DNA of 64,000 nt from the NCBI RefSeq assembly GCF_056712565.1, contig NZ_CM160072.1; one strand, given 5' to 3'. The position numbers were made by a program, and so were the translations under genes. Under the pieces are notes generated by a model. That model made no database searches. It was not told the DNA's origin and saw nothing but the letters and a program-made list of their open reading frames with translations. Position 1 is the stretch's first letter. The number at the start of each line of letters is the position of its first letter. Shown here piece after piece: positions 1 through 35,106 of this stretch.

Positions 1-209
1 ATCTGCAGGGTGAGGCGATGAGCCTGGCGGGTGCAGCCGTTCAGGGGATGCGTGGCGCAGATACGGGACTGAAAAATGGCATTACACAGACTGCTTTTGC
101 CGGTGCCGGATTTACCCATAATGCCAATCACGGGCTCGTAATGAATAACACCGTGGAGATGTTCAAGGATTTTCTGGCGAATTTCTTCAGGAAGAAACGT
201 CAGATATGA
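1..209 (+). CDS. 3' end of an ORF that begins left of the window; function unknown
   Basis: Frame is open from position 3 through the stop at 207-209; no recognisable motif. Confidence 0.2.
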   Translation, partial: LQGEAMSLAGAAVQGMRGADTGLKNGITQTAFAGAGFTHNANHGLVMNNTVEMFKDFLANFFRKKRQI

Positions 210-348
210 TTTCACTTGCGCGGAGAGGGAAGAATTGCTGAATGGCATACCGGTATCCTGTTGATTTCACTGAACCGGATCACACTAATCCGGTTTATCA
301 TTCAGGTAATATGGGTGTGAAAATTTTTCCATTGACGGGAAGAAGAGT

Positions 349-1572
349 ATGGCTAAAAACAAAGGTATCTGTCGGAATAAAAAATGCAGTAATCCTGTTT
401 CAGAATTTGATGAGGCAAATGCCTTAAGGTTATGCGATGATCATTATAAGCTATGGAAGCGAAATAAAGAGAATCGTCGGGTCAGGAATATTTGTCGTAT
501 AATTAGTAGATATGACAAAAGTCTGGACTGGGAGATATTTTATAGAGTAAGAGATGCTGCAAAAAATAAAACGGGAAAGAGAATTATTGAGGACGCAAAA
601 ATATTACACCAATGGCGTGCTTCAAAGCAAGTAAGAAAAAGTTTTCACAAGGGTGTGCTTCGGTCACGGGAATGGCTTAATACACAGGAGTTACTGAGCA
701 GAAAACATATATCTGTTACAGGTGAACTATTTAAATTTTACATAAAAGATATTATCAGATTATATTGCTATAAGTTTCTCTACAGCAGAGAATATCTTAA
801 TGAAAACGCATACAAAAAACGATATCAGAGAGATATTCACCCCAGAAAAGTTAATGTTCCGATACTGCAACTTGAAGTTGCATGGATAAATAATAATTGC
901 CGCTCAAGTGATTCAAGCACTGATATTATTATCCTTCCGAGGATGATAAGAAGAATGGTTGTATTTAATTATACGAAGATAAATAAACAATTAGAGAAAG
1001 TGTTGGGGGGGATAGCACGAAAACAAACCTCAGAAAGGAATAAAGGCGGTCTCTATACCAGAATAAAAAAAGAAAGTGACTTTCTTTCTATGGATAGATT
1101 TATGGTGGAAATAGAAAATATCATAAGACCTGAAAGGTTTCCTACATCAATTTATCCAGTCTTTTCACATTCATTTATTGAACGAGAGCTTCCGCTACTG
1201 AATCTTGCCCGATCACAGTATAAAAGAGCAATAAGTAAAAGAGTGGCGAATTCAATTTTTTATACTTTGCAAAAAACTAACGTGGCATTATGGCTATATC
1301 TTGAAATGTTTGCTCTGGTGGCATTCATTAAACTGTATACAGGAAAAGGTTTTGAATTCATAAAGAACATGTGTGTATTTATCGATTATGAGAAAGGGAT
1401 AATAAAATCCACACATGAAGAACTGCTGGGTGAAATTAAACGTAACATTCAAGTGAATTTGAAGGTGAATCCTGATAATTTTCCAGAGTTAATAGATATA
1501 TACAATTCATGCTTTAGTGAAAATATATTGTCATATGATATTCAGGATGGTAATTTTAAATGGCGCTCATGA
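349..1572 (+). CDS. Hypothetical protein, 407 aa, Lys/Arg/Ile-rich, in very AT-rich DNA (likely horizontally acquired orphan)
   Basis: Long uninterrupted ORF with strong low-GC codon bias unlike the core genes; no recognisable catalytic motif. Confidence 0.4.
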   Translation: MAKNKGICRNKKCSNPVSEFDEANALRLCDDHYKLWKRNKENRRVRNICRIISRYDKSLDWEIFYRVRDAAKNKTGKRIIEDAKILHQWRASKQVRKSFHKGVLRSREWLNTQELLSRKHISVTGELFKFYIKDIIRLYCYKFLYSREYLNENAYKKRYQRDIHPRKVNVPILQLEVAWINNNCRSSDSSTDIIILPRMIRRMVVFNYTKINKQLEKVLGGIARKQTSERNKGGLYTRIKKESDFLSMDRFMVEIENIIRPERFPTSIYPVFSHSFIERELPLLNLARSQYKRAISKRVANSIFYTLQKTNVALWLYLEMFALVAFIKLYTGKGFEFIKNMCVFIDYEKGIIKSTHEELLGEIKRNIQVNLKVNPDNFPELIDIYNSCFSENILSYDIQDGNFKWRS

Positions 1573-3024
1573 TGTGAAAATATTAATTTCACATTACATA
1601 TTAATTATCCACAAAAAACATATAATTAATTTCAATGAGTTACATATAAAAACGTTGATGATTATCCAGCTTAGTATGGTTATGCAATGTGATGCTTAAC
1701 GCTTACAGATAATAACACATTCATATGAGCTATATATCATAATATTCAATAATCATGATATGCTAATCTGATTATGGATAAAAATTACTGAATGACGCCA
1801 TATTATGATTGGCAGTGTTTCCTGTATACGATGACTTATCTCTCCCGCATCATATGGGGGTACGTTTCTTAGGAAAAGTGACGGGGTTACAGAAGCCAAT
1901 TACGATAGTTTGTTGTAGAGTTATCACGAGTTTTTGTTGTTCTGAAGACGGAATCAGAAAAATAATTCCAGAGTAAACATGTCTGTTTTTTGACCAGTAA
2001 AGATCCATGCTGGCCGTGAAAAACTGAAATCAACACTCAGTCTGCATGGATGTCTGAAGATATTGAGAATGTCGGGAATGGTACTATATACGTATTATAC
2101 AGACATATCTTCACTAAGTGTTATACACGCATTTTCATAAACAATTCTACAAGTGTTTTCATTAAGCATTGCTGTACACATTGTTTGATCTGATACACAT
2201 CCAGTTTAGTAAATCTTTACGTTAGCTAAAATCAGTTTAAAGCTGCTACAAAACAATTTTTCTTGTTTAAGTAATCAGGATGATATTCTATTTTTCTGAA
2301 GTTACGTTTAACCTTTTCTTAGTTTTTGTGTTTTTAGTCGTTAACCTGAGACAAGTGTCTTTATGTAAAAACGCAAATCCGGCTGAGATAACCTGGCGTG
2401 ATTTACTGTGTGCTTACGATGATTTTGTTAAATGGTTTTATGGATGATTTTGTAACGATGAGATTGATGAGATGATTAACTGGCCCTGGTGTTTTTTCTC
2501 AGCGCAAGACTCTTTTCAGGAAAAGCGTGATGATTGGTTCTGGTGTTTTGATTCAGATGAGGTTTACGTTATCGATGGTTAACCGTTTTTATGGAGCGTA
2601 GTTAAAAGTAACGTTTTCAGTATAAGAAAATCGATTCTGATGTTGGTGGTTTTTGTTCTTGGGGCGGGGGTGTCTGTAAACAGGTTTTAATCGCGCTGTT
2701 CGGCTCTGTGATTGAGTTGTGTGGTTAAGCTGTAGGTGTGGTGTTGCTGTTGATTTACAGCGCCAGAAAGCGTTCTGATTGCGTTTCTGACGTTTTGTTT
2801 GCGCGTTCTGTTGATCCGTTTCCCTTCAGGCTTTGTAGTTTTTAAAAAACATTTATGCCGTTGTTGTGTGTTTTACTCTGCGTGTAGGTTTATTTTTTCT
2901 TCGTGGGGGATTCATTCTGTTTTAATCAGGAGCCATTGGCGTTGCTCAATGGCGGGATGCCGTAAAGTTTTACCGCAGTGATTAATGATGTGAAGTCAAT
3001 CCAAATCAACGGAGATCTCTCATC

Positions 3025-3756
3025 ATGAATCAACCAATACACAATGCTTACTGGTTATCCCGTTTTGAAAGTATTCTCAACAGTGCCCTGGCGCAACACC
3101 GTGCCGTCTCGTTAATCCGGGTGGATTTACGTTTCCCTGAGTATATGCCTGCCACCATCATGGATACCGATTTAGATTCAGCGGTGATTTCTCGTTTTTT
3201 TGCATCCCTGAAAGCAAAAATTCAGGCTTACCAGCGACATAAACGACGTGCCAACAAGCGTGTGCGTGCAACCACTCTGCGTTATTTCTGGTGTCGGGAG
3301 TTTGGCAAGGAAAAAGGCAGGAAACATTATCACGTGATATTACTGCTCAACAAAGATACCTGGTGCTCGCCAGGGGATTTCACCGTTCCTTCTTCGCTGG
3401 CGACGCTGATCCAACTGGCATGGTGCAGTGCTCTGCATCTCGAGCCCTGGCAGGGTAATGGACTGGTTCATTTTTCCAGGCGGACGCCTTTCCGTAAACC
3501 GACATCATCTGATGCTCGCCCTTCTTCCGATGATACGCCTTTGTCGGGTGGATGTTCTGAAACCAGGAAGGCTTCAGACAAAAAGTCTGGTGGATCCGCT
3601 GTGCTCTGGGTCAAGCGTGGTGATGTGGAAGCGATGCAGAAAGCCCGGAACAGAGCCAGTTATCTCGTGAAATATGAGACGAAGCAGCATGACGGTTCCG
3701 GGCAACGTAATTATGGTTGCAGTCGTGGGGTAGGGCGTCTACTGGATGGCAGGTGA
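3025..3756 (+). CDS. YfjJ/YagK-family (inovirus Gp2-like) prophage protein
   Basis: 243 aa ORF; HYHVILLL-type block and overall resemblance to the YfjJ/YagK proteins of CP4-type cryptic prophages; adjacent AlpA-like gene. Confidence 0.5.
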   Translation: MNQPIHNAYWLSRFESILNSALAQHRAVSLIRVDLRFPEYMPATIMDTDLDSAVISRFFASLKAKIQAYQRHKRRANKRVRATTLRYFWCREFGKEKGRKHYHVILLLNKDTWCSPGDFTVPSSLATLIQLAWCSALHLEPWQGNGLVHFSRRTPFRKPTSSDARPSSDDTPLSGGCSETRKASDKKSGGSAVLWVKRGDVEAMQKARNRASYLVKYETKQHDGSGQRNYGCSRGVGRLLDGR

Positions 3757-3913
3757 GCCCTGTAAAACGGCATCCGGTACCAGAGTGTATGTCACGGTAA
3801 GGGCGTCAGCCAACGCCCTTAGATCGTTTTCTGCTAATAGCCCTGAAGTCATGAAACGGTATTTTTATCTGCTTCCGCTCCTGGAAACACTCCGTCGGTA
3901 AAAACTTACCGGG

Positions 3914-4678
3914 ATGATTAATGATGTGAACCGAAGTCAACGGAGATCATTCCCCCTGAACCTGCATCCAGTGTTCTTTCCCTTATCTTCCCGTTCTGCT
4001 TCGGTTCTTCACTTATTCCATCAACTCCATCCGCAAACCATAACACGTCAGCTTATTCACGGGCAGGACGCATTGTGGGCTGCGCATAACGGAGCATATC
4101 TTATGAATGCTATCCCTTATTTCGACTATAGCCTGGCCCCCTTCTGGCCATCTTATCAGAACAAAGTCGTCGGCGTCCTTGAGCGTGCGCTGCGTGAGCA
4201 GTCCGGCTCACGGATACGGCGGATCCTGCTTCGTCTGCCGTGTGAATATGACAATACCTTCAACAGCAGAACGACCTGGTTTGGTATGGATTTTATCGAA
4301 ACCGTCAGTGCGCTGATGAATGCAACCCCCGGACGTGATCTCTGCTGGCTCCTGACCCGTCATCCTGAAAAACCGGAATACCACGTGGTGCTGTGCGTCA
4401 GACAGGAGTATTTCGATGGCCCTGAATTGGACCGGTTGATACTGGATGCCTGGAGTAACGTACTGGGCTTCGCGTCACCGGGTGAAGCAAAGCAGTATCA
4501 GAAGCAGATCACCCGGGATGTGGTGCTGGACAGTCGTTCACCGGACTGTGAAAACATCCTCAAAGAGTTGATATGGGCGTTCAGTGATTTCGCCCGCGAT
4601 CGTCGTGGTGTGTGCGATCCGGAAGCCCGTTGCCTCGCCGGTAATCCCGGCTATCCCGGATCTGCAGGACCGTTCTGA
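3914..4678 (+). CDS. Second YfjJ/YagK-family paralog (true start may be the ATG near 4103)
   Basis: Parallel architecture to 3025..3756 including the EYHVVLCV block; the first ~60 codons of the ORF are a leader shared with the element upstream of the first copy. Confidence 0.45.
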   Translation: MINDVNRSQRRSFPLNLHPVFFPLSSRSASVLHLFHQLHPQTITRQLIHGQDALWAAHNGAYLMNAIPYFDYSLAPFWPSYQNKVVGVLERALREQSGSRIRRILLRLPCEYDNTFNSRTTWFGMDFIETVSALMNATPGRDLCWLLTRHPEKPEYHVVLCVRQEYFDGPELDRLILDAWSNVLGFASPGEAKQYQKQITRDVVLDSRSPDCENILKELIWAFSDFARDRRGVCDPEARCLAGNPGYPGSAGPF

Positions 4679-4746
4679 AAGCTCGGTTCAGCATCTTTCC
4701 CTGCATTCGCACAAACTTCATAAATCTCACAAAGGACATTCTGACC

Positions 4747-4980
4747 ATGTTGACCACAACAAGCCACGACAGCGTGTTACTGCGTGCCGACGATCCCCTG
4801 ATCGACATGAACTACATCACCAGTTTCACCGGTATGACCGATAAATGGTTTTACAAGCTGATCAGTGAAGGTCATTTCCCTAAACCCATCAAACTGGGGC
4901 GCAGCAGCCGCTGGTACAAAAGTGAAGTGGAGCAGTGGATGCAGCAGCGAATTGAGGAATCACGAGGAGCAGCAGCATGA
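4747..4980 (+). CDS. alpA: AlpA-family phage/island transcriptional regulator (small HTH protein)
   Basis: 77 aa; FPKPIKLGRSSRWYKSEVEQW matches the AlpA signature (FP.P.KLG...W...E...W). Confidence 0.6.
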   Translation: MLTTTSHDSVLLRADDPLIDMNYITSFTGMTDKWFYKLISEGHFPKPIKLGRSSRWYKSEVEQWMQQRIEESRGAAA

Positions 4981-5254
4981 AACGTGTTGCAATACCAGCG
5001 CCGGCATTGCGGAAATCAGCCCTGTCCCCGATGCTGGCGACACTCCCGCTCATCTTTCTGCTGACTCCTCTGGTCTGCCAACTGTTTGTCATCATTTCCT
5101 GACTGATTCGTCATTCCCTTCGTCCCGCCAGTCACTGGTGTTTGTATCGTACCGTCCGGTGTTGATGTGCGTTTTCCGTGTGTCTGCACCGGCTTAACAA
5201 AATTCAACAGGGTTTGAAAAGGAACATTTCGTGCAAATAACCGAAGCCTTAATT

Positions 5255-5590
5255 TCAGAGCCGGGAGACATCCGGCGTTTTGTTCAGCAGGCGCTGGAGT
5301 TCTTTAATCTGCTTCATGGCAGCAGCAAGTTCAGAGGCAGGAACGACCTGTTCTCCTGCGGCCACAGCAGTAAGACTTCCCTCCTGGTATTGCTTGCGCC
5401 AGAGAAATAACTGGCTGGCTGCCACACCGTGTTGCCGGGCAACAAGGGAGACCGTCATTCCCGGTTCAAAGCTCTGCTGAACAATAGCGATCTTTTCCTG
5501 TGTAGTACGCCGTCTGCGTTTCTCCGGTCCTAAGACATCAATCATCTGTTCTCCAATGACTGGTCTAAAAACTAGTATTAAGACTATCAC
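5255..5590 (-). mobile_element. IS66-family accessory protein TnpA (orfA) relic; rest of the IS is missing
   Basis: [44 protein letters not shown] matches the IS66 OrfA signature; no orfB/tnpC follows. Confidence 0.6.
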
Positions 5591-5728
5591 TTAAATAAGT
5601 GATATTGGTTGTCTGGAGATTCTGGGGGCTAGTCTAGTTTTAAAGCGCCCCCTGCCGTATCAGAACTGGGGAATGCTACAGGGTTTGACCTGTTCCTCGA
5701 GGATCGTAGCGGAGCTAGCCATGAAAAA

Positions 5729-6793
5729 ATGATCCAGGCCCGAAATCAGCTTCTTGCTGAAGCGGCGAAAAGTCCAGCGTTAAACATGGTTCGTCCTAAC
5801 GGCATGAACGATGAGCCTCAGTTCCAGATTCTGATTGATGACGAGAAAGTTCAGGCGTTTAAACTGAGCATGAGCGACGTCGACAACATAATGTCAGCAG
5901 CCTGGGGTTCGATGTATGTAAATGATTTTAACGATCGTGGACGGGTGAAAAAAGTCTATATTCAGGGCGAACCCGGCTCACGTATATCACCGCAGGATTT
6001 TGATAAATGGTATGTCCGTAACAGTGATGGCGACATGGTTTCCTTTGCCTCTTTTGCAACAGGCAAATGGATTTATGGCTCACCAAAACTGGAGCAATAT
6101 AATGGTATCTCTGCTGTCGAAATCCTGGGGGAACCGGCACCAGGATACAGTTCCGGGGATGCAATGAAAGCAATTGAGGATATTGCGGCAAGACTTCCCG
6201 AAGGTTTCCATATTTCCTGGACAGGTTTGTCTTTTGAGGAACGACTTTCAGGTTCTCAGGCTCCTGCACTATATGCACTTTCACTGTTGATCGTCTTTCT
6301 GTGTCTGGCTGCACTGTATGAAAGCTGGAGCATTCCTTTCTCGGTCATGCTGGTTGTTCCGCTTGGTGTCCTGGGGGCTGTCTGTGCTACTTTGTTGCGC
6401 GGCCTTGGTAACGATGTCTTTTTCCAGGTCGGTTTATTAACAACAATAGGGCTGTCTGCGAAAAATGCCATACTTATCGTGGAGTTTGCTCGTGAATTGC
6501 ATGAGAAAGAAGGACTAAGCATTAAAGAGGCTGCTGTTGAAGCGGCGAGAGTGAGGTTAAGACCGATAATTATGACTTCGCTGGCATTTGTAATGGGGGT
6601 TATCCCACTGGCTGTCTCGACTGGAGCAAGTTCCGGAAGTAAACATGCCATCGGTACTGGTGTGGTTGGAGGGATGATCACTGCTACGATACTGGCAATC
6701 TTTTATATTCCTCTCTTCTATATGTTAATTGCCGGGTTCTTCAGCCGCAGAAATAAGAAATCATCGGATAAGACTGAAGCTGAGCAATCATAA
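5729..6793 (+). pseudogene. C-terminal third of an RND multidrug efflux permease (AcrB/AcrF-like); 5' two-thirds absent
   Basis: ORF aligns to the last ~350 residues of AcrB ([19 protein letters not shown]..., [20 protein letters not shown]..., MTSLAF) with nothing coding for the N-terminal ~650 aa. Confidence 0.75.
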
Positions 6794-6892
6794 GCATGAG
6801 TAAATATTCAGGTGCAGTAAACAACATACTGCGCCTGAGTAAATGGCTGTTGGGTTGGTACTAAATGCCCCAGAGATATTTCCTGAAATAAG

Positions 6893-7264
6893 ATGTCAAT
6901 GGAGATTTCAACAGTGGTGCGGCACACAAAATTTGCAGCGGAAGAAACCCGCAAACAAATCCTGGATGTGGCAGAGTTCTGCTTTTGTGAGACGGGCTTT
7001 TCGAAGACGACACTGGAGATGATTGCGGCGCGCGCAGGTTGTACTCGGGGGGCCATATACTGGTATTTCAACGAAAAAAAAGATCTTCTGCGACAAGTCA
7101 TCGAGCGGGTACCACTATCATTATTTGATGAGCTTACAGCCATCAAAAATGGGAGAGTTTTTGAACCGGTTAAAGCGATGTATCGTTGCTTATCACGTAG
7201 CCTGATTAAATTACAATATAATGTACACTTACGGAATGTAATTTATATTGTGTTTTTTTTGTGA
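6893..7264 (+). pseudogene. TetR/AcrR-family regulator, N-terminal HTH retained, C-terminus degenerate
   Basis: TetR HTH signature (TTLEMIAARAGCTRGAIYWYFNEKKDLL); ORF is only 123 aa and ends in low-complexity sequence. Confidence 0.55.
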
Positions 7265-7535
7265 AGAATGTCCGGATGATATAAGAATAAATTTCTTACA
7301 AAAAATGGTGGATGTCAATAATTTTGTGAAATTACTATGTTATATTTTCGAAAAAGGTAAGTTATATAGAGAAATATGTTTGGAAATTCGTAGTGAGACT
7401 CTGGCGTTCCTGCTTTTTTCTTTGTTTACGGGGGGGGGCGAAGTTGCATTCTGCAACCTGATAATAAATCCCTTTTCAGAGAGGGTTGCATAGTACTGGA
7501 GTTGACCCAATCAACCTTCACAGGCATCGATAAAA

Positions 7536-7881
7536 ATGAACGCTACTATAAAAAACAGCTCTGATATCAATGAGTTTGCTAAATGGATTGATGAAAATCT
7601 TGAGGTAGAACTCTCAATAAATATTGAGGCAAAAAAAGCTGGATATTCAAAATGGTATTTACAGAGATTGTTTAAACATATCATTGGTATTTCTATTGGT
7701 AGGTATATTAATAAATGCAGCAGAAGAACTACGTTCTACTACTGAATCGGTCACGACTATCACTTTTAAATATCAGTTTGATTTTCAGCAGACATTTACA
7801 AGGGCATTTACTCGCCGCTTTGGTATAGCTCCTATTGCATACCGAAAACTCGCTAAGGAAGAAGTGAGATGGAATAGTTAG
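7536..7881 (+). pseudogene. MarA/RamA/SoxS-like small AraC-family activator, split by a frameshift
   Basis: Two overlapping ORFs (7536..7745, 7624..7881) carry the two halves of a MarA-type double HTH (AGYSKWYLQRLFK... / ...FDFQQTFTRAFTRRFGIAPIAYRK). Confidence 0.55.
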
Positions 7882-8183
7882 TTATGTAAGCGTTATTTAC
7901 TTAAGCGTGGATATATAAGAATGATATTATCAATATGTTGCTCATGAGTTTTTAATAGCATATAGGCTTGTTAACATAGCCCAGCAATATACTTTGCAGT
8001 GGGAGCAGGTATGCATACAGAACAGTGGGCGAGGACGAGCGTCCCTTTTCGAACAAGGTAGCAAAAGAGGAAGAAGAAAGACAAATACAACTGGGCCTGA
8101 AAGGGTAGTGTTTAAGCCCCCTTTCAGGGGGCCGTGTCAAAGCCGCCCGCTATGCAGATGGTTTTTTACTTTATCTGTTAAGC

Positions 8184-12674: not shown

Positions 12675-14515
12675 GATCACCACCTACATAGGAGGTGTTT
12701 TAAAATTGATCGAGTAGGAGGCGGGATCACTCCCGCCGTCCTCTCACACCACCGTACATGCGGCTCCGCATACGGCGGTTCATGTTAACACTGGAACTGC
12801 CTCTGCTGTTCCAGCAGTGATATCAGACCCTGCCTGCTGAACCACGCATTCTTTATCGCCTGATTCATATGGCTTGACTCTGAGTTCCACCATGGCCCGT
12901 GGTTGTTGTACGCTGAGATCATCGCCCTGTCCTTACTCAGTCCTGCTCTTTGCAGGTTCTTTGCCCGGGTTAGCGGTCTCTTCCACTGCCGCTACAACAA
13001 GCAACGCAGTTTCCGTTTGATCCAGCCATCCAGCTCCTCCAGCACTCCTCTGACCTCCGTCAGCCTGAAGTAGCTTATCCATCCACACAGCACTGGTGTC
13101 AGAGCATTGATTGTCGCTTTCACTGATTTGCTCCGGTTTCCCGTCGTCAGACTGTGGACTTTCTCCTTCAGCCTGTTCACGCTCGTCAGGGCTATCTTCA
13201 GCTTCGCCTGTTTGTGCCATGTCACACTGTACCCGAGGAACTTCCGATCCCACGGGCGCGCCACCGCGCTCTTCTTCTCATTCACCTTCAGTTTGTTCTC
13301 CACGAACGCCCTGATGTTCTTCAGCAGATGGTCGCCCGCTTTCCGGCTGCTTACGTAGATGTTGCAGTCGTCTGCGTAGCGGCAGAAGCTGTGTCCACGA
13401 CGCTCCAGTTCTTTATCCAGTTCATCCAGCAGGATGTTCGACAGTAACGGCGACAGTGGGCCGCCCTGCAGCATGCCCGCCTGCCGTTTCTCCCTTTGCC
13501 CGTCTTTAACCATTTCCGCTTTCAGGTAGCGGCGTATCAGTCACAGCACCCGCCTGTCCTTTATCGTTCTGGCCAGACGCGTCATCAGGAGTCTGTGATC
13601 CACCCGGTCGAAGAACTTCTCCAGATCCATATCCACCACCCACCGTTTGCCACCCCGTATGTAACGCTGTGCCTGTTGCACCGCCTGCTGGATAAGCCTG
13701 TCCACCACCGTCGGGATGCCTGAGGTTCTCACGCCGCCATCCGGCTTCGGGATATCCATCCGGCGTATTGTCCGCGGCTGGTAGTTTCCGTCAATCAATG
13801 CCTGCCTGACGCTGCGCCAGTTCTTCTTCAGCCACGGTTTCAACTCCGCCACGCTGAGGTTATCCACCCCCGCCGTGCCTTTGTTTTCCACCACGCGCTG
13901 ATAAGCCAGCATCAGGTTTTCTCTCGTTATCACCGCTTCCATCGTCAGCGGCACTTCCGCTTTCGTTTGCCCACCCGCCGCCGTGCTGATTTCAGCGCCA
14001 TCATGCAGCCCTGACGGATACTGTCCGTCTCCTCTGCCGCTGGTCGCAGTGGCCTGCGCTTGTGCTTCATTAATCATCATCGGGTTCGGATGTCCTAATC
14101 ACAGTTAATCATGTTCGGCCCTTCATGCTGCCGGTTTTGCAGCACTACTACGGCGTCGGCTGACTTCTGCCGCCCCATCCCGGCGCCTCACGGCGCCGGT
14201 AGCACACTGGCAGGGCGACAGATCTCCCGGGGTAATTCACGCGACTTTCCTGCTTATGCCTGTCGGCTTTACGTCACAGCGTTCCGTGTGAGTATCGGGC
14301 TTTGGTGATTAGTGCCACCTTACCCTGCTGCGCCGCCTTAACCGCTTCCTGTTCGTCAGGCCAGCATTTTGCATCCAGCTTCCTTCAGATTTCACCTCGC
14401 GATGAACACCCTTGCCTTCCGCTAACACTTCCCCTCACCGGGTGTGTGGAGGACTTTCACCTCTTAGTCGTTCTTCTGCCACCACAGTTGAAGAACAGCG
14501 CCAGTCACGGCGCAC
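12675..14515 (-). mobile_element. Group II intron (~1.8 kb) inserted just downstream of the microcompartment operon terminator; ends approximate
   Basis: Minus-strand GTGCG at 14515..14511 8-9 nt after the terminator T-tract; RT/maturase ORF inside; domain V-like hairpin at ~12745..12775 (CCGTATGCGG / CCGCATGTACGG with 2-nt bulge) and GNRA-capped helix after it. Confidence 0.65.
12784..14080 (-). pseudogene. Group II intron reverse transcriptase/maturase, disrupted by one frameshift (~13515-13540) and one in-frame TAG (12992-12994)
   Basis: RT blocks 0-2 in ORF 13541..14080 (AGVDNLSVAEL, IPKPDGGVRTSGIPTVVDRLIQQA, DMDLEKFFDRVDH); RT4-5 in ORF 12992..13513 (QGGPLSPLLSNILLD, FCRYADDCNIY); maturase tail continues in the same frame past the TAG (QWKRPLTRAKNL...LISLLEQQRQFQC). 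Confidence 0.7.
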
Positions 14516-31753: not shown

Positions 31754-33190
31754 GTGACAATAGCAAGAGATTCTGTTAGTGGTGAAATTGTTCATGGTCA
31801 TGATCTTCGGGAAATGGATGATCTTTATATACGAACAACCACTTTTGAATGCCCGTATGACAAATGTAGGATACCCGCTACTCCATGTAGCTTCAAAGAA
31901 ATAAATTTAAATCAATCATACTTTCGATATAAAGAGACTCATAGGCCGGGATGTAATATTCATGATCCTAAGAGTAAAAATAAGTGTAACTCAAAGAATA
32001 ATAAAAAGCATAATTCACCACCGGCATTAGCTATATCTCTTCTGAAACTTGATGTGTCTGAAAGAAATTACGACTCTTCTGGCAGAAGAATTATCAAACA
32101 GACGCGAAATGATGAAAAAGATTTGGGAGGTAAAGTACACCCTGTGTCATCTTCAAGCATCAAACCGGTAGTAGACTACTACATTAATGGAGATAATCTC
32201 TATGAACCATTATCAATTCCCCCTTATGGAGTTAGAACTTATAAAGATACTTTTCAACTAATCATCTATAAAGAAGGAATTAGATATAATAAGCCAGCAA
32301 TTTATTTTGGTAAAATTCAATCTAATATACGGCTGGAGATAAATTCGAATAGATATTACCTTACTTTTTTAGCCAGAAAGAAAGGTACCAAACAAGCATA
32401 TAAACTTGAAATTGATGCTTCAGAATGGGATGAAAGTAAAAAGAGTTTTTTCTGTAGTGAGTATGAAAAACAAAGAGCAGAAGCAAATAAGTATTATAAT
32501 GGACTAAAAGACAAGCGCAAAGCAACCAAATATCTTAATATTTTCTTTTTTGGTTTTCCTGATGAGTGCGATAGTTTTTTATTTAAGACTAGTTGTTTTA
32601 AATTGATTTATATCGTTTTCTTAGATGATTTTGATGTGACTTATAATGACAAAAACTACAGCATAGAAAAAGAACAGCTAATTAGAGATGAAATTAACAA
32701 AGAACATTTGACAGATCATCAAAATAGAATAAACCTTGCTGAGGTTGCTGAGGTTGCTGAGGTTGCTGAGGTTGCTGAGGTTGCTGAGGTTGCTGAGGTT
32801 GCTGAGGTTGCTGAGGTTGCTGAGGTTGCTGAGGTTGCTGAGGTTGCTGAGGTTGCTGAGGTTGCTGAGGTTGCTGAGGTTGCTGAGGTTGCTGAGGTTG
32901 CTGAGGTTGCTGAGGTTGCTGAGGTTGCTGAGGTTGCTGAGGTTGCTGAGGTTGCTGAGGTTGCTGAGGTTGCTGAGGTTGCTGAGGTTGCTGAGGTTGC
33001 TGAGGTTGCTGAGGTTGCTGAGGTTGCTGAGGTTGCTGAGGTTGCTGAGGTTGCTGAGGTTGCTGAGGTTGCTGAGGTTGCTGAGGTTGCTGAGGTTGCT
33101 GATTTTGACAAGAGCGAATTTAACCCTTCGGATTCTGATAGGAAAATATGGACTGGGATAAGAAAGCTTATTTCATTCTTTAAAAAATAG
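31754..33190 (+). CDS. Hypothetical AT-rich protein with a Cys/His-containing N-terminal region and a C-terminal (Ala-Glu-Val)x40 tract
   Basis: GTG start preceded by AAAGGAGA; 478 aa ORF; the in-frame 9-bp repeat encodes AEV 40 times. Confidence 0.6.
   Translation: MTIARDSVSGEIVHGHDLREMDDLYIRTTTFECPYDKCRIPATPCSFKEINLNQSYFRYKETHRPGCNIHDPKSKNKCNSKNNKKHNSPPALAISLLKLDVSERNYDSSGRRIIKQTRNDEKDLGGKVHPVSSSSIKPVVDYYINGDNLYEPLSIPPYGVRTYKDTFQLIIYKEGIRYNKPAIYFGKIQSNIRLEINSNRYYLTFLARKKGTKQAYKLEIDASEWDESKKSFFCSEYEKQRAEANKYYNGLKDKRKATKYLNIFFFGFPDECDSFLFKTSCFKLIYIVFLDDFDVTYNDKNYSIEKEQLIRDEINKEHLTDHQNRINLAEVAEVAEVAEVAEVAEVAEVAEVAEVAEVAEVAEVAEVAEVAEVAEVAEVAEVAEVAEVAEVAEVAEVAEVAEVAEVAEVAEVAEVAEVAEVAEVAEVAEVAEVAEVAEVAEVAEVAEVADFDKSEFNPSDSDRKIWTGIRKLISFFKK
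32738..33097 (+). repeat. Perfect tandem repeat, 40 copies of GCTGAGGTT (360 bp)
   Basis: Read directly: unit starts at 32738 and repeats without a single mismatch to 33097, then a partial GCT. Confidence 0.95.
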
Positions 33191-33221
33191 ATCTATAGCA
33201 GTCATCATATTGGATTATTGG

Positions 33222-33257
33222 TGAAGTGGTACACTGAATTTGCCCACCTGAACAGAG
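33222..33257 (+). mobile_element. Solo IS911/IS3-family terminal inverted repeat (IS scar)
   Basis: TGAAGTGGTACACTGAATTTGCCCACCTGAACAGAG differs at only ~2 positions from the terminal repeat of the intact IS911 at 41881..41914. Confidence 0.5.
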
Positions 33258-33321
33258 TTGGTTTTATCAAACTTGTAGTTTACTCAATGACGTAAAAATT
33301 GGTGATGTAAAGGATATAAAA

Positions 33322-35106
33322 ATGTGGTCAGACAAAGAGTCATCAGAAGACTACCTAAATTTTGGTGAAGTATCTCAGTTAGCCGTGGATGTACTTACCA
33401 CGAAAGATATGTTACCAGTATCTATCGGAATTTTTGGAAACTGGGGGGCAGGTAAATCCTCTCTGTTAAAACTGATAGAGCAAAAACTTGAGCAAGACGA
33501 CAAAGATTGGATTGTTATCAATTTTGACTCTTGGCTCTATCAGGGGTACGACGACACCCGTGCCGCACTTCTTGAAGTCATCGCTACAGAATTGACAAAA
33601 GCTGCTGAAGGTAATTCAGCCCTTATATCAAAAACTAAGAGACTCCTTAGTCGAGTTGATGGTTTTAGAGCTATGGGATTACTAGCTGAGGGTACAGCTT
33701 TAATGGCAGGATTACCTACTGGCGGTTTGCTTTCTAGGGGGATTGGTGCATTAAGAAATATCACCGATGGCATCCAGAGCCAGGAAGAGTATGAGGCTTT
33801 AGGCAATATAGCTAAAGAAGGTAAAGAAACTGCTTGTGGTTTGATTAAACCACAAACAAAAAAAAGCCCCCCTCAGCAGATTGATGCCTTTCGTAAGGAA
33901 TATGGGGAAATTCTAGAAGAACTTGGAAAGCCACTCATTGTGGTAATAGATAACCTAGACCGCTGTCTCCCTGCCAATGCTATCCATACACTTGAAGCTA
34001 TCAGGCTATTCCTTTTCTTGACTAATACAGCCTTTATTATTGCAGCAGATGAGGACATGATTCGCTCTTCTGTGGCTGATTACTTCAAAGGGGCATCACA
34101 GCGCCATCAAATAGATTATCTGGATAAGCTAATCCAGGTTCCTATTCGGGTGCCTAAGGCTGGGGTCCGTGAGATCCGTTCGTATCTGTTCATGCTTTAT
34201 GCCATTGAACATGGCTTAGAAGGCGAAAAAATAACTATGCTCCGTGAGGGCTTAGAGAAGGCGTTACAGCAATCCTGGAAAGATGAACCAATCTCACGTC
34301 AGGAGGCCTTAAAAATGACTGGTGAAGCGGATGATAGCAACCTCGCGCTGGCGTTTGCGCGTGCTGACCGTATTGCTCCCATTTTAGCCAACTCTCCAAT
34401 TATTCATGGTAATCCCAGGATCGTTAAACGCTTGTTGAATGTTGTGAAAATGCGATCTCAAATTGCGAAGCGACGAGCAATGCCTTTGGATGAAGCAATT
34501 ATTACTAAGCTAGTAATTTTTGAACGCTGTGTTGGAGTGGATGGCACCGCTGATTTATATCATCTCGTGGATATTGAACAAGGTGTTCCCCAGATACTTA
34601 AACAGCTTGACGATAATGGCGGTCAAATACCTACTGATGCACCAAAGACATGGACTGATAGTCCAACGACTAAATCTTTCATCAGTCAATGGGCCCAACT
34701 TGAACCTCGTCTTGGTGGGATTGACTTAAGGGCCGCCATATATCTGTCCCGAGAAACTATGCCAATAGGTGCATATGTGGTTGGTTTATCGCCATCTGGA
34801 CGGGAAGTACTAAATGCACTAATTGAATTGAAAAACACTAGTTCTCCTACAGCAGAAAACCTTTTGAAAGCACTTCCTCGTGAGGAGCAAATACCTGTAA
34901 TGGAAGGTTTAATTAACCAGTTACGGCAGGTATCAGATTGGGATCGTAAGCCCAGAGGCTTTTCCGGTGCATGTCTGTTGGCCCGCTACTCAACAGATGC
35001 AGCCAGCATATTAATTCGTTATCTACAGGAATTACAGTTGGGGATGAAACGACCAGCGTGGATGACTGCAGCATTAAAAGATGAACAATGGAATAAGGAC
35101 GCTTAA
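33322..35106 (+). CDS. qatA: KAP-family P-loop NTPase (QatA-like)
   Basis: Walker A GNWGAGKSS followed by the KAP-characteristic INFDSWLY block; 594 aa. Confidence 0.8.
   Translation: MWSDKESSEDYLNFGEVSQLAVDVLTTKDMLPVSIGIFGNWGAGKSSLLKLIEQKLEQDDKDWIVINFDSWLYQGYDDTRAALLEVIATELTKAAEGNSALISKTKRLLSRVDGFRAMGLLAEGTALMAGLPTGGLLSRGIGALRNITDGIQSQEEYEALGNIAKEGKETACGLIKPQTKKSPPQQIDAFRKEYGEILEELGKPLIVVIDNLDRCLPANAIHTLEAIRLFLFLTNTAFIIAADEDMIRSSVADYFKGASQRHQIDYLDKLIQVPIRVPKAGVREIRSYLFMLYAIEHGLEGEKITMLREGLEKALQQSWKDEPISRQEALKMTGEADDSNLALAFARADRIAPILANSPIIHGNPRIVKRLLNVVKMRSQIAKRRAMPLDEAIITKLVIFERCVGVDGTADLYHLVDIEQGVPQILKQLDDNGGQIPTDAPKTWTDSPTTKSFISQWAQLEPRLGGIDLRAAIYLSRETMPIGAYVVGLSPSGREVLNALIELKNTSSPTAENLLKALPREEQIPVMEGLINQLRQVSDWDRKPRGFSGACLLARYSTDAASILIRYLQELQLGMKRPAWMTAALKDEQWNKDA

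Follow-up and report, generated by a model that had tools for sequence, protein, structure and literature searches.

A putatively HNH-derived allelic gene and a GT-skewed non-coding element in the backbone of a CP4-type island of Escherichia coli

The window, the whole 64,000-nt stretch of DNA analyzed here, is of E. coli B2 origin, and the segment under study is 100% identical to APEC O1 and ATCC 11775. The segment sits in a CP4-type island located between cadC and the grp locus. Annotation of the integrase/AlpA type agrees with the integrase-associated island proposed in the initial annotation. The island copy is degraded; in RefSeq, the identical segment of APEC O1 is annotated with only a fragment of the integrase, adjoining cadC. 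The CP4-type backbone neighbors are present, namely a YfjP-like GTPase, DUF932, antirestriction, RadC, CbeA/CbtA, a Gp2-family protein, AlpA, and integrase. The GTPase gene is the first of a leftward backbone operon that continues with WYL, DUF905, DUF932, antirestriction, RadC/JAB, and CbeA/CbtA. Islands of the CP4-6/CP4-57 type are bounded by a P4-type integrase at one end and by Gp2-orf-AlpA at the other. Eight further E. coli genomes and some 100 metagenomic loci share this backbone gene order. The comparative locus set comes from a metagenome pattern scan; a Gp2-based scan of genome contigs returned two loci only, and a pattern scan of viral contigs returned none. Islands related to that of the window carry defense cargo nearby, and some encode a ProQ/FinO-family RNA-binding protein near AlpA. 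Table 1 lists the features of the locus.

Table 1. Positions of genes and other features, numbered from the first base of the window
Feature	Position	Strand	Basis
YfjP-like GTPase gene, 5' part	1–248	−	RefSeq annotation of identical APEC O1 segment; same neighbor in all related loci
Divergent intergenic region between GTPase gene and 407-aa gene	249–348		Sequence; homology breakpoint at 323
Allelic cassette (407-aa gene and its own 3' flank)	324–1958	+	blastn against loci with other alleles
407-aa protein gene (ATG start)	349–1572	+	ORF; RefSeq hypothetical protein WP_001107219
Allele-specific AT-rich 3' flank, 31.6% GC	1573–1958		Promoter/terminator scan; allele comparison
Conserved ORF-free GT-skewed element, linked to downstream Gp2-family gene	1959–3024	+	Alignments; ~1.07 kb
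Inverted repeat CATGC...GCATG, the only consensus helix of the element	2006–2048		Alignment fold; alifold window z ~ −5
Replaceable inner segment, edges approximate	2563–2849		Locus comparison
Nearly invariant 5' leader of Gp2 gene	2961–3024	+	44 nt at least 95% conserved in 60 variants
Inovirus Gp2/YagK_YfjJ_C family protein, similar to HUH rolling-circle Rep	3025–3756	+	Pfam, PHROG
Degenerate Gp2-family paralog	3914–4678	+	Weak YagK_YfjJ_C match, E = 0.26; duplicated leader; annotation
AlpA-family regulator, marking the island end distal to the integrase	4747–4980	+	Annotation

The 407-aa gene has a GC content of 33.5%, compared with 47.8% across the window, and its protein matches no family in Pfam (E <= 1), NCBIfam, or PADLOC. 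Both the AT-richness and the want of a recognizable domain noted in the initial annotation therefore stand. The best PHROGs hit has an E value of only 0.08, and PADLOC-DB 2.0 contains no family matching this protein or the two downstream proteins at E <= 1. The gene is not the orphan it was taken for. It occurs in 975 of 5,426 complete E. coli genomes at 90–100% identity, and has homologs in Citrobacter and Klebsiella with 33–37% identity; a profile search retrieved 43 representative clusters. Fifteen of 16 alleles are intact and dN/dS is about 0.27, indicating purifying selection. The gene thus encodes a real, selected protein of an uncharacterized family. Relatives also occupy island backbones, beside AlpA, DUF932, or the GTPase, and some hold core positions directly after AlpA. 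A tblastn search of plasmids and phages with the protein gave no match. YfjH of K-12 was considered as a relative and rejected on comparison. The name 'reverse transcriptase', carried by one Klebsiella homolog in a single UniRef entry, was also discarded: every other source calls that homolog hypothetical, and none of 34 family members has an RVT match in Pfam. Searched by accession and by family names, the literature yielded no functional study of the 407-aa family or of the GT-rich element.

Family alignments place a CCCH zinc-finger-like motif at the N terminus of the 407-aa protein, formed by C8, C13, C29, and H32. The motif is followed by a long helical region, a putative beta-beta-alpha unit (residues 175–219), and a C-terminal helical domain closed by a YNSxFS motif. 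The AlphaFold2 model has a pLDDT of 84 and a pTM of 0.72. Remote comparison, proposed with the initial annotation, yielded family homologs and a degenerate HNH motif, but no structural relative of the full-length model in the PDB or among viral structures. Family profiles searched against PDB sequences found nothing, and Pfam searches with the N-terminal zinc-finger fragments gave chance-level matches only.

The beta-beta-alpha unit corresponds to an HNH nuclease motif carried by distant relatives. The His is invariant only in the 14 distant relatives, and both Asn columns are invariant in distant relatives. In the 407-aa protein, W179, D192, and R201 take the places of the His and the two Asn residues. 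Across its clade the His column holds W, F, Y, or K, and the Asp and Arg persist at the Asn columns. At these very positions the 407-aa clade differs from HNH (beta-beta-alpha-metal) endonucleases, for example the Cas9 HNH domain, PacI, and PDB 4h9d, in having Trp, Phe, or Tyr in place of His, Asp in place of the first Asn, and Arg in place of the metal-binding Asn. All similarity scores to these enzymes are below significance. Pfam HNH_4 and HNH_5 match at only 0.0045–0.024, each in two of 34 family members, and a central-domain profile of the distant relatives retrieves from the PDB only 4h9d (HNH), at E = 0.57. No structural relative was found for the remainder of the 400-aa protein. As judged from these residues, the 407-aa protein is an uncharacterized, putative zinc-finger protein derived from a DNA-cutting enzyme that is now predicted to be disabled. 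We infer that it may bind DNA in an allele-specific manner without catalysis, serving island biology through regulation or through recognition of the island's own DNA.

The 407-aa gene and its 3' flank make up an allelic cassette, and no other stretch is replaced as a whole from island to island. In blastn comparisons of APEC O1 with loci carrying 376-aa and 316/320-aa alleles, the sequences are 94–96% identical up to position 323, unalignable from 324 to about 1958, and 80–88% identical from about 1959 onward. The shared bases 249–323, common to islands with other alleles at that 94–96% identity, include a palindrome, CCGGAT-N7-ATCCGG, at 275–293 in the intergenic region. At least three deeply diverged alleles of one family, of 407, 376, and 316/320 aa, occupy the slot. 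The allele gene is always divergent from the YfjP-like GTPase gene, and the order is GTPase (−), the 407-, 376-, or 316/320-aa allele (+), an optional 176-aa ORF, and Gp2 (+). Alignment of the alleles with hhalign gives probabilities of 96.8% (E = 3e-10) and 95.1% (E = 3e-8), so the alleles are homologous. P0039, found by profile search at E = 5.8e-9, is 32% identical to the 376-aa allele.

The ORF-free stretch behind the 407-aa gene was initially described as a single gap of about 1.45 kb. It consists instead of the allele-specific flank and a separately conserved element. The flank diverges faster than the gene, with 71–72% identity where the gene is about 90% identical. The only sigma-70-like matches of the gap lie at 1553–1766. 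A terminator-like hairpin at 1842–1860, followed by a T-run, is not kept in divergent alleles and was rejected as a conserved feature. The gap contains one perfect DnaA box, at 1605–1613, and two near boxes; these vary between alleles, and an origin based on them was likewise rejected.

The element begins at the motif AAATAATTCCAGAGTAAA, located at 1960. It is found in 1,877 of 5,426 E. coli genomes (~35% of complete genomes), in up to seven copies per genome, and holds a fixed position ahead of the Gp2(HUH-Rep-like)-orf-AlpA genes; RefSeq almost never annotates it. Among 103 loci with both edges, its length is 1,006–1,166 nt in 67, 1,826–1,979 nt in 32, and 826–838 nt in four. About 1 kb is thus kept in 99 of the 103 loci, among variants down to 77% identity, and only four deletions of about 200 nt are seen. 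Searched against phage records, the gap DNA has no match; against plasmids, it matches only four records. In Citrobacter, AlpA comes right after the 407-aa homolog and the long element is missing, which speaks against a functional tie between the two modules.

The GT-richness reported initially is borne out. The segment 2201–3000 has 64% G+T, the highest of any 800-nt segment in the 64-kb window (z = 4.3); one other stretch, which is coding and lies at 32.4 kb, equals it. The + strand contains 16 copies of GTTTT and the − strand four, and the G/C ratio is 1.7–3.1 in 2373–2972. The skew does not reach into the Gp2 gene. Mean pairwise identity is 86% for the element and 91% for 4-fold sites of the adjacent Gp2 gene. 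The element therefore diverges about as fast as synonymous sites, yet retains its length and strand skew. Its variants differ by many small indels, a microsatellite, and the swappable inner segment, and short degenerate direct repeats together with ATACAC/ACTAAGT-type repeats of variable copy number lie at about 2085–2200; no strong repeats were found. In about one-third of the loci, the inner segment is exchanged for about 1.2 kb containing a 176-aa ORF on the − strand (WP_000778605), which has a weak NikA-like RHH match (E = 0.011). The short form of the inner segment holds most of the invariant blocks of 10–13 nt; several blocks of this size are at least 95% conserved.

The leader at the downstream end of the element contains, in order, a palindrome (CCGTAA-N4-TTACCG), TGATTAATGATGTG, and a Shine-Dalgarno sequence (GGAG). 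A second copy of the leader, located at 3897–3945 and with a self-match of 75% identity, precedes the paralogous ORF; the RefSeq call for this degenerate paralog is 4103–4678. The Gp2-family protein itself matches PF11726 at 3e-36 and PF23343 (REP_ORF2-G2P) at 3e-10, as well as PHROG families of replication initiation.

Several tests address what the element could encode. The longest ORF in 1573–3024 on either strand is 60 aa, in line with the ORF-free description. No ORF is shared between variants, and the 3-base periodicity of substitutions that is present in the Gp2 gene (p < 0.001) is absent from the element (p = 0.42). Small ORFs at 2280–2447 and 2799–2981 and a − strand ORF across the left edge were rejected, since their frames are broken by indels in the variants and show no periodicity. 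The element does not code for protein, and the earlier suggestion of a decayed gene is not supported.

A structured RNA, also suggested at first, fares no better. The proposed Rfam scan, run on positions 1–5300 at E <= 1, finds no family in 1573–3024; its sole match, PhotoRC-I at 3448–3515 inside the Gp2 gene, scores 19.9 bits against a gathering score of 45 and is at chance level. Consensus folds of 60 variants have energies between −0.6 and −5.6 kcal/mol for each 80-nt stretch, and compensatory pairs are almost absent. Single-sequence folding compared with shuffles gives z = +1.05 for the + strand and −1.5 for the − strand. The best helix has five pairs and no compensatory changes in 36 variants. 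The element is no catalogued or structurally conserved RNA. Moreover, 1955–3024 contains no sigma-70-like promoter site, and 1959–3024 contains no pair of promoter-like and terminator-like signals.

With a probability of roughly 50%, the locus represents two adjacent, independent backbone modules of a CP4-6/CP4-57-type island, namely an HNH-derived allelic protein cassette and an untranslated leader or spacer. The 407-aa gene would then be part of the backbone rather than cargo, transcribed divergently from the GTPase/antirestriction operon. Our best guess for the element is a putative C-poor untranslated leader or regulatory spacer, a long cis-acting stretch for the Gp2-orf-AlpA excision/replication operon. 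As the element has no sigma-70-like site, transcription probably starts upstream or needs an activator. By composition only, the + strand RNA, C-poor and G-rich, would be a poor Rho substrate and could thus cross 1 kb untranslated, the − strand RNA, C-rich and G-poor, would be a good Rho substrate, and the AT-rich DNA would be a plausible H-NS target. A regulatory or silenced promoter region is the most plausible candidate role for the gap.

The alternative that survives best, though unlikely, is that the gap is an essentially non-functional, old or decayed spacer in a silenced island, of which only the last ~60 nt, comprising operator and ribosome-binding site, are functional. The lower identity of the element relative to the 4-fold sites of Gp2 means that most of its sequence could be neutral, and divergence slightly above that of synonymous sites is what a spacer would show. 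So are the small indels, the microsatellite, the swappable inner segment, the even faster evolution of the flank 1573–1958, and the failure to find RNA structure, ORF, or promoter signals. Recent shared ancestry of E. coli islands and recombination among them would then account for the apparent conservation. However, bacteria are usually biased toward deletion, and the retention of ~1 kb in 99 of 103 loci runs counter to that bias. The skew is also the most extreme in the window, and the 10–13-nt blocks conserved at 95% or more do not fit a decayed spacer.

It is decidedly unlikely that the element serves the neighboring Gp2-like HUH protein as a cis-acting origin, and perhaps as a packaging or transfer region. 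In that case, Gp2 would nick the + strand in the element once the island had excised, replication or transfer of the island would take place in single-stranded form, and the G+T excess would be the mark of a strand that is frequently unpaired. The position directly upstream of a REP_ORF2-G2P/replication-initiator-like gene, the constant association with that gene, the strong strand skew, and the variable-copy repeats are consistent with an origin, as are crude polarized counts on the + strand (C>T 0.61 and G>A 0.48 per site). Alternative inserts or neighbors encode RHH proteins with weak NikA-like or RepB-RCR-regulator-like matches, but all of these fall below threshold. An origin is also at odds with the lack of conserved long hairpins or iterons, the only consensus helix being 5 bp. 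The DnaA boxes are not conserved, similarity to phage records is absent and to plasmids almost so, the element evolves at about the neutral rate, and the skew stops short of the Gp2 gene.

The initial annotation viewed the 407-aa gene as orphan cargo that might hide an abortive-infection or toxin function. A role in abortive infection, as a toxin, or in anti-defense, with allelic diversity arising from an arms race with phages or mobile elements, is improbable. It would account for very divergent alleles lying between flanks of 94–96% and 80–88% identity, and it gains from the adjoining antirestriction/RadC/toxin-antitoxin backbone, from abpAB and rnlAB in the equivalent CP4-57 interval of K-12, and from the defense cargo of related islands. 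Against it, the gene occupies a fixed backbone slot, no PADLOC model matches, and the alleles are homologous rather than unrelated cargo, with relatives in core positions right after AlpA. Purifying selection (dN/dS ~0.27) and the disabled nuclease motif of the 407-aa clade also speak against it.

A more speculative idea, with a small chance of being correct, combines the two modules. The hypervariable zinc-finger/HNH-derived gene and the GT-rich element would together constitute an identity module of an island replicated or packaged as single-stranded DNA. If so, the Gp2-like HUH protein would nick the element, which would serve as origin and packaging region, and the 407-, 376-, and 316/320-aa alleles, each with its own flank, would be determinants of specificity or incompatibility. 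With such alleles, as many as seven related islands could share one genome, or self could be told from rival elements. Finally, the gap might encode a non-coding RNA, whether long or small, that is structured or serves as a protein sponge. The length of the ORF-free stretch, its strong strand bias, and the ProQ/FinO-family protein near AlpA in some related islands would suit this reading, but it is very improbable given the empty Rfam scan, the weak and uncompensated folds, the unexceptional folding z scores, and the missing promoter/terminator pair.

CP4-type islands rank with the most common accessory elements in E. coli, and their cargo includes virulence, defense, and toxin-antitoxin genes. 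The two-module reading adds two handles, an undescribed HNH-descended protein family and an untranslated element of defined extent (1 kb) whose operator-like leader is duplicated. Both make the control of CP4-type excision and replication directly testable, and neither changes current views.

In filamentous Ff phages, an intergenic region with origins and packaging signal lies immediately upstream of gene II, and an origin in the element would be analogous to it. Like this region, the element is long, non-coding, and T-rich on one strand, and a gpII-like HUH gene follows it directly. Unlike the Ff region, it is chromosomal and about twice as long, and has no phage sequence similarity and no conserved hairpin array.

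The closest comparison is with the CP4-6 and CP4-57 islands, whose backbone genes and gene order are the same as those around the 407-aa gene and the element. In these islands, as here, the Gp2-family gene and AlpA lie at the end opposite the toxin-antitoxin end. The K-12 copies of CP4-57 and CP4-6 contain neither a 407-aa family gene nor the 1-kb element, and K-12 yagJ is preceded by IS1C and unrelated DNA. The yfjJ-yfjP interval of CP4-57 holds abpAB, yfjM, and rnlAB, with all modules in one direction, unlike in the island of the window.

Islands inserted at tmRNA in Pseudomonas are moved by jumbo-phage transduction (bioRxiv 10.1101/2024.08.29.610337). They differ from the island of the window in genus and insertion site, and no long leader or zinc-finger/HNH-like gene is described for them (bioRxiv 10.1101/2024.08.29.610337). 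Nevertheless, they also contain RadC and variable defense cargo, and, as in the island of the window, one end has an integrase and at the opposite end an inovirus Gp2-like gene immediately precedes AlpA (bioRxiv 10.1101/2024.08.29.610337).

The beginning of the window contains two separable modules of an island backbone, a cassette (324-1958) that includes the 407-aa gene and an element (1959-3024). The gap downstream of the gene is accordingly two things: its first 386 nt (1573-1958) are part of the cassette, and the remaining ~1,066 nt are the separate element. The compositional description in the initial annotation holds. The ORF encodes 407 aa and has 33.5% GC versus 47.8% for the window, and the gap (1573-3024) contains no ORF longer than 60 aa on either strand. 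No 800-nt window in the 64 kb is more extreme than segment 2201-3000, at 64% G+T. GTTTT occurs 16 times on the + strand versus 4 on the - strand, and the G/C ratio of the GT-rich stretch rises to 1.7-3.1. A second stretch with an extreme excess of G over C and of G+T (G/C up to 2.6) lies at 31754-35106. That excess falls in a 478-aa ORF (31754-33190) lacking a Pfam domain, directly upstream of a KAP-family P-loop NTPase gene (33322-35106).

Over its first 5.2 kb, the window shares 100% identity with E. coli APEC O1, ATCC 11775 and a large number of further B2/ExPEC chromosomes. The APEC O1 locus is flanked by cadC on one side and the grp microcompartment genes on the other. The surrounding gene set is a CP4-6/CP4-57-type island backbone. 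To the right of AlpA, 5255-7900 is degraded island DNA with a transposase fragment, an N-terminally truncated RND efflux permease, and TetR and AraC genes that are both split. The APEC O1 annotation also places fragments of a group II intron reverse transcriptase/maturase within the grp locus (~12990-14080). A perfect palindrome, CCGGAT-N7-ATCCGG (275-293), is located in the divergent promoter region of the GTPase and 407-aa genes, within the part conserved across alleles.

Features of the locus and of related loci (L-numbers), with positions in the window unless a locus is named
Feature	Position	Strand	Source or remark
Tyrosine recombinase fragment	left end, adjoining cadC	-	APEC O1 annotation
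WYL, DUF905, DUF932, antirestriction, JAB/RadC, DUF987, YeeU/CbtA and DUF4942 genes	leftward, beyond the GTPase gene	-	APEC O1 annotation
YfjP-like GTPase gene	ends at 248	-	APEC O1 annotation
407-aa ORF, then 1,452 nt unannotated	rightward	+	APEC O1 annotation
'Inovirus Gp2 family' gene	3025-3756	+	APEC O1 annotation
Hypothetical gene	between Gp2-family gene and AlpA	+	APEC O1 annotation
AlpA-type regulator, then IS debris	4747-4980	+	APEC O1 annotation
176-aa ORF WP_000778605	L002 5163-5693, L010 4736-5266	-	absent from window
Convergent 262-284-aa gene	L004 2689-3477, L009 2310-3164	-	islands with the 316/320-aa allele

The element extends from the motif AAATAATTCCAGAGTAAA to the Gp2 start codon (~1,066 nt) and is present downstream of all three alleles of the cassette gene, which encode 407-, 376- and 316/320-aa proteins. 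It occurs in 1,877 E. coli genomes, at up to 7 copies per genome and 73-100% identity, and annotations of it are very rare. Another 117 loci came from a pattern scan of metagenomes. Among 103 loci with both edges, the element measures 1,006-1,166 nt in 67, 826-838 nt in 4, and 1,826-1,979 nt in 32. In the long form, found in about a third of related loci, ~287 nt (around 2563-2849) are swapped for ~1.2 kb carrying the 176-aa ORF, which has a sub-threshold NikA-like RHH match. This segment is freely combined with either the 407- or the 376-aa allele; two partial loci pair it with the 316-aa allele's RHH partner. In L009, a (GATGGT)n microsatellite of ~45 nt inside the element (aligned to window ~2645) is expanded in one lineage, indicating that length change is tolerated at that point. 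A contig labelled 'MAG: Bacillota bacterium' (JAEYLX010000008.1), in all likelihood a binning contaminant, has the E. coli island segment, with ~88% identity to the window in the element and 86% in the Gp2 gene.

The element is not the decayed gene once suggested. No ORF is shared across its variants, and 60 distinct sequences display no 3-base substitution periodicity (p = 0.42), whereas the Gp2 gene of the same set of loci does (74 distinct sequences, p < 0.001). At 86%, its mean pairwise identity falls short of that at 4-fold sites in the neighbouring Gp2 gene (91%). Most positions look nearly neutral, and conservation of ≥95% is confined to the final 44 nt and a small number of blocks of 10-13 nt. 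This substitution rate suits the idea that the element is mostly junk, an unlikely one given that ~1 kb is kept in 99 of the 103 loci. An origin or packaging region for Gp2 would fit the position and skew, but is distinctly unlikely: the element lacks any conserved hairpin, iteron or DnaA box, contains no strong repeats, whether direct or inverted, and shows no phage DNA similarity. The sole perfect DnaA box in the 64 kb (TTATCCACA, 1605-1613) is in the AT-rich cassette flank; two further boxes (1773 and 2720) each have one mismatch. The perfect box is treated as a chance match, as its sixth position varies among alleles and it is not conserved.

A leader of ~55 nt occurs twice, before the Gp2 gene (2961-3014, in the conserved end of the element) and before its degenerate paralogue (3897-3945). 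Each copy has the palindrome C(C/G)GTAA-N4-TTACCG, then TGATTAATGATGTG and TCAACGGAGATC. In the Gp2 copy, the palindrome reads CCGTAA-N4-TTACCG and a ribosome-binding site comes after TGATTAATGATGTG; the other copy has CTG at the position equivalent to the ATG. The duplication points to a shared operator or leader for the two genes.

Homology between islands stops sharply at window 323 and returns at ~1959, and 324-1958 is therefore a cassette exchanged as a unit. Its 3' flank (31.6% GC) diverges faster than the 407-aa gene (71-72% versus ~90% identity). Other islands have the 376-aa protein in this slot, again divergent from the GTPase gene, or else the 316/320-aa protein together with a convergent RHH protein. 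That convergent 262-284-aa gene gives a weak C-terminal match to RHH/RepB-RCR regulators and has no counterpart downstream of the 407-aa allele. The three proteins are barely related by pairwise BLAST, but profile comparison relates them (96.8% probability, E = 3e-10; 95.1%, E = 3e-8), and the 376-aa type is 32% identical to one of the 43 clusters that a profile search of 1.8 billion representatives linked to the 407-aa protein. By these comparisons, the cassette carries deeply diverged alleles of one family. The 407-aa gene is no orphan: among 5,426 complete E. coli genomes, 975 carry it at 90-100% identity, and Citrobacter and Klebsiella have homologues (33-37%). Of 16 alleles, 15 are intact, and the median dN/dS is ~0.27. 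The gene is real, selected and allelic, and it is not cargo.

As the initial annotation stated, the 407-aa protein has no recognizable domain: Pfam, NCBIfam and PADLOC gave no match, and PHROG none that is meaningful. The AlphaFold2 model (pLDDT 84, pTM 0.72) is mainly helical with a beta-beta-alpha unit at 175-219. C8, C13, C29 and H32 are invariant across the close family and form a CCCH zinc-finger-like motif; SREWxNTQEL, SREYL, LxLEV, IRRMV and YNSxFS are also kept. Exactly at the beta-beta-alpha unit, 14 distant members share LE.CH.YPNS.GG.N...N.IIAP..INR, whose spacing is that of an HNH nuclease. Independent checks agree in direction and are all weak: Pfam HNH_4/HNH_5 match two family members each (E 0.0045-0.024), and PDB 4h9d, an 'HNH endonuclease', matches at E = 0.57 in an alignment that pairs His, Pro, Gly-Gly and both Asn. 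The 407-aa clade has Trp, Phe, Tyr or Lys in place of His (W179 here), and D192 and R201 at the positions of the two Asn, so the protein is not classed with the HNH nucleases; it has the look of a disabled derivative. The distant relatives whose motif is intact likewise belong to island backbones, where they immediately follow AlpA or precede DUF932 or the GTPase gene. A close Citrobacter homologue has AlpA ~320 nt downstream with no long gap between. A defence, toxin or anti-defence role, including the abortive infection proposed initially, accords with the allelic diversity and is improbable, as PADLOC, allele homology and the disabled motif lend it no support.

A structured or other non-coding RNA in the element is scarcely credible: Rfam gave no match, on neither strand does the single sequence fold better than shuffles, 1930-2067 was the only stretch flagged in an alifold scan (its consensus helix has 5 pairs and 0 compensatory changes), and a finer consensus-fold scan reached only -0.6 to -5.6 kcal/mol. 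The element is non-coding, keeps its length, lacks conserved RNA structure, and has a physical link to the Gp2-orf-AlpA genes. We favor a model in which it serves as a long leader or regulatory spacer of the excision/replication operon, and in which the 407-aa protein, a zinc-dependent factor without catalytic activity, binds DNA with a specificity that varies by allele. No sigma-70-like site is found on either strand of 1955-3024, so transcription through the element would come from upstream or depend on an activator; the gap's only such matches, and a terminator-like hairpin, are in the cassette flank. An untranslated RNA of 1 kb is normally exposed to Rho. The + strand RNA would be C-poor and G-rich, and as such a poor substrate for Rho, and RNA of the other strand would be C-rich and G-poor; through this asymmetry, the skew could make the element passable in one direction only. 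H-NS could plausibly target the AT-rich DNA. Crude polarized counts on the + strand give a weak signal (C>T 0.61 versus G>A 0.48 per site), in the direction expected if that strand were more often single-stranded through transcription or rolling-circle replication.

Literature searches on these parts found no functional study, and neither the protein family nor the element has been described. Both modules are common, unannotated backbone parts of a known island type, and nothing about them is strongly surprising. Pseudomonas tmRNA islands are alike in design to this island: the integrase lies at one end, a Gp2-like gene with AlpA lies at the opposite end, and they contain RadC and defence cargo (bioRxiv 10.1101/2024.08.29.610337).
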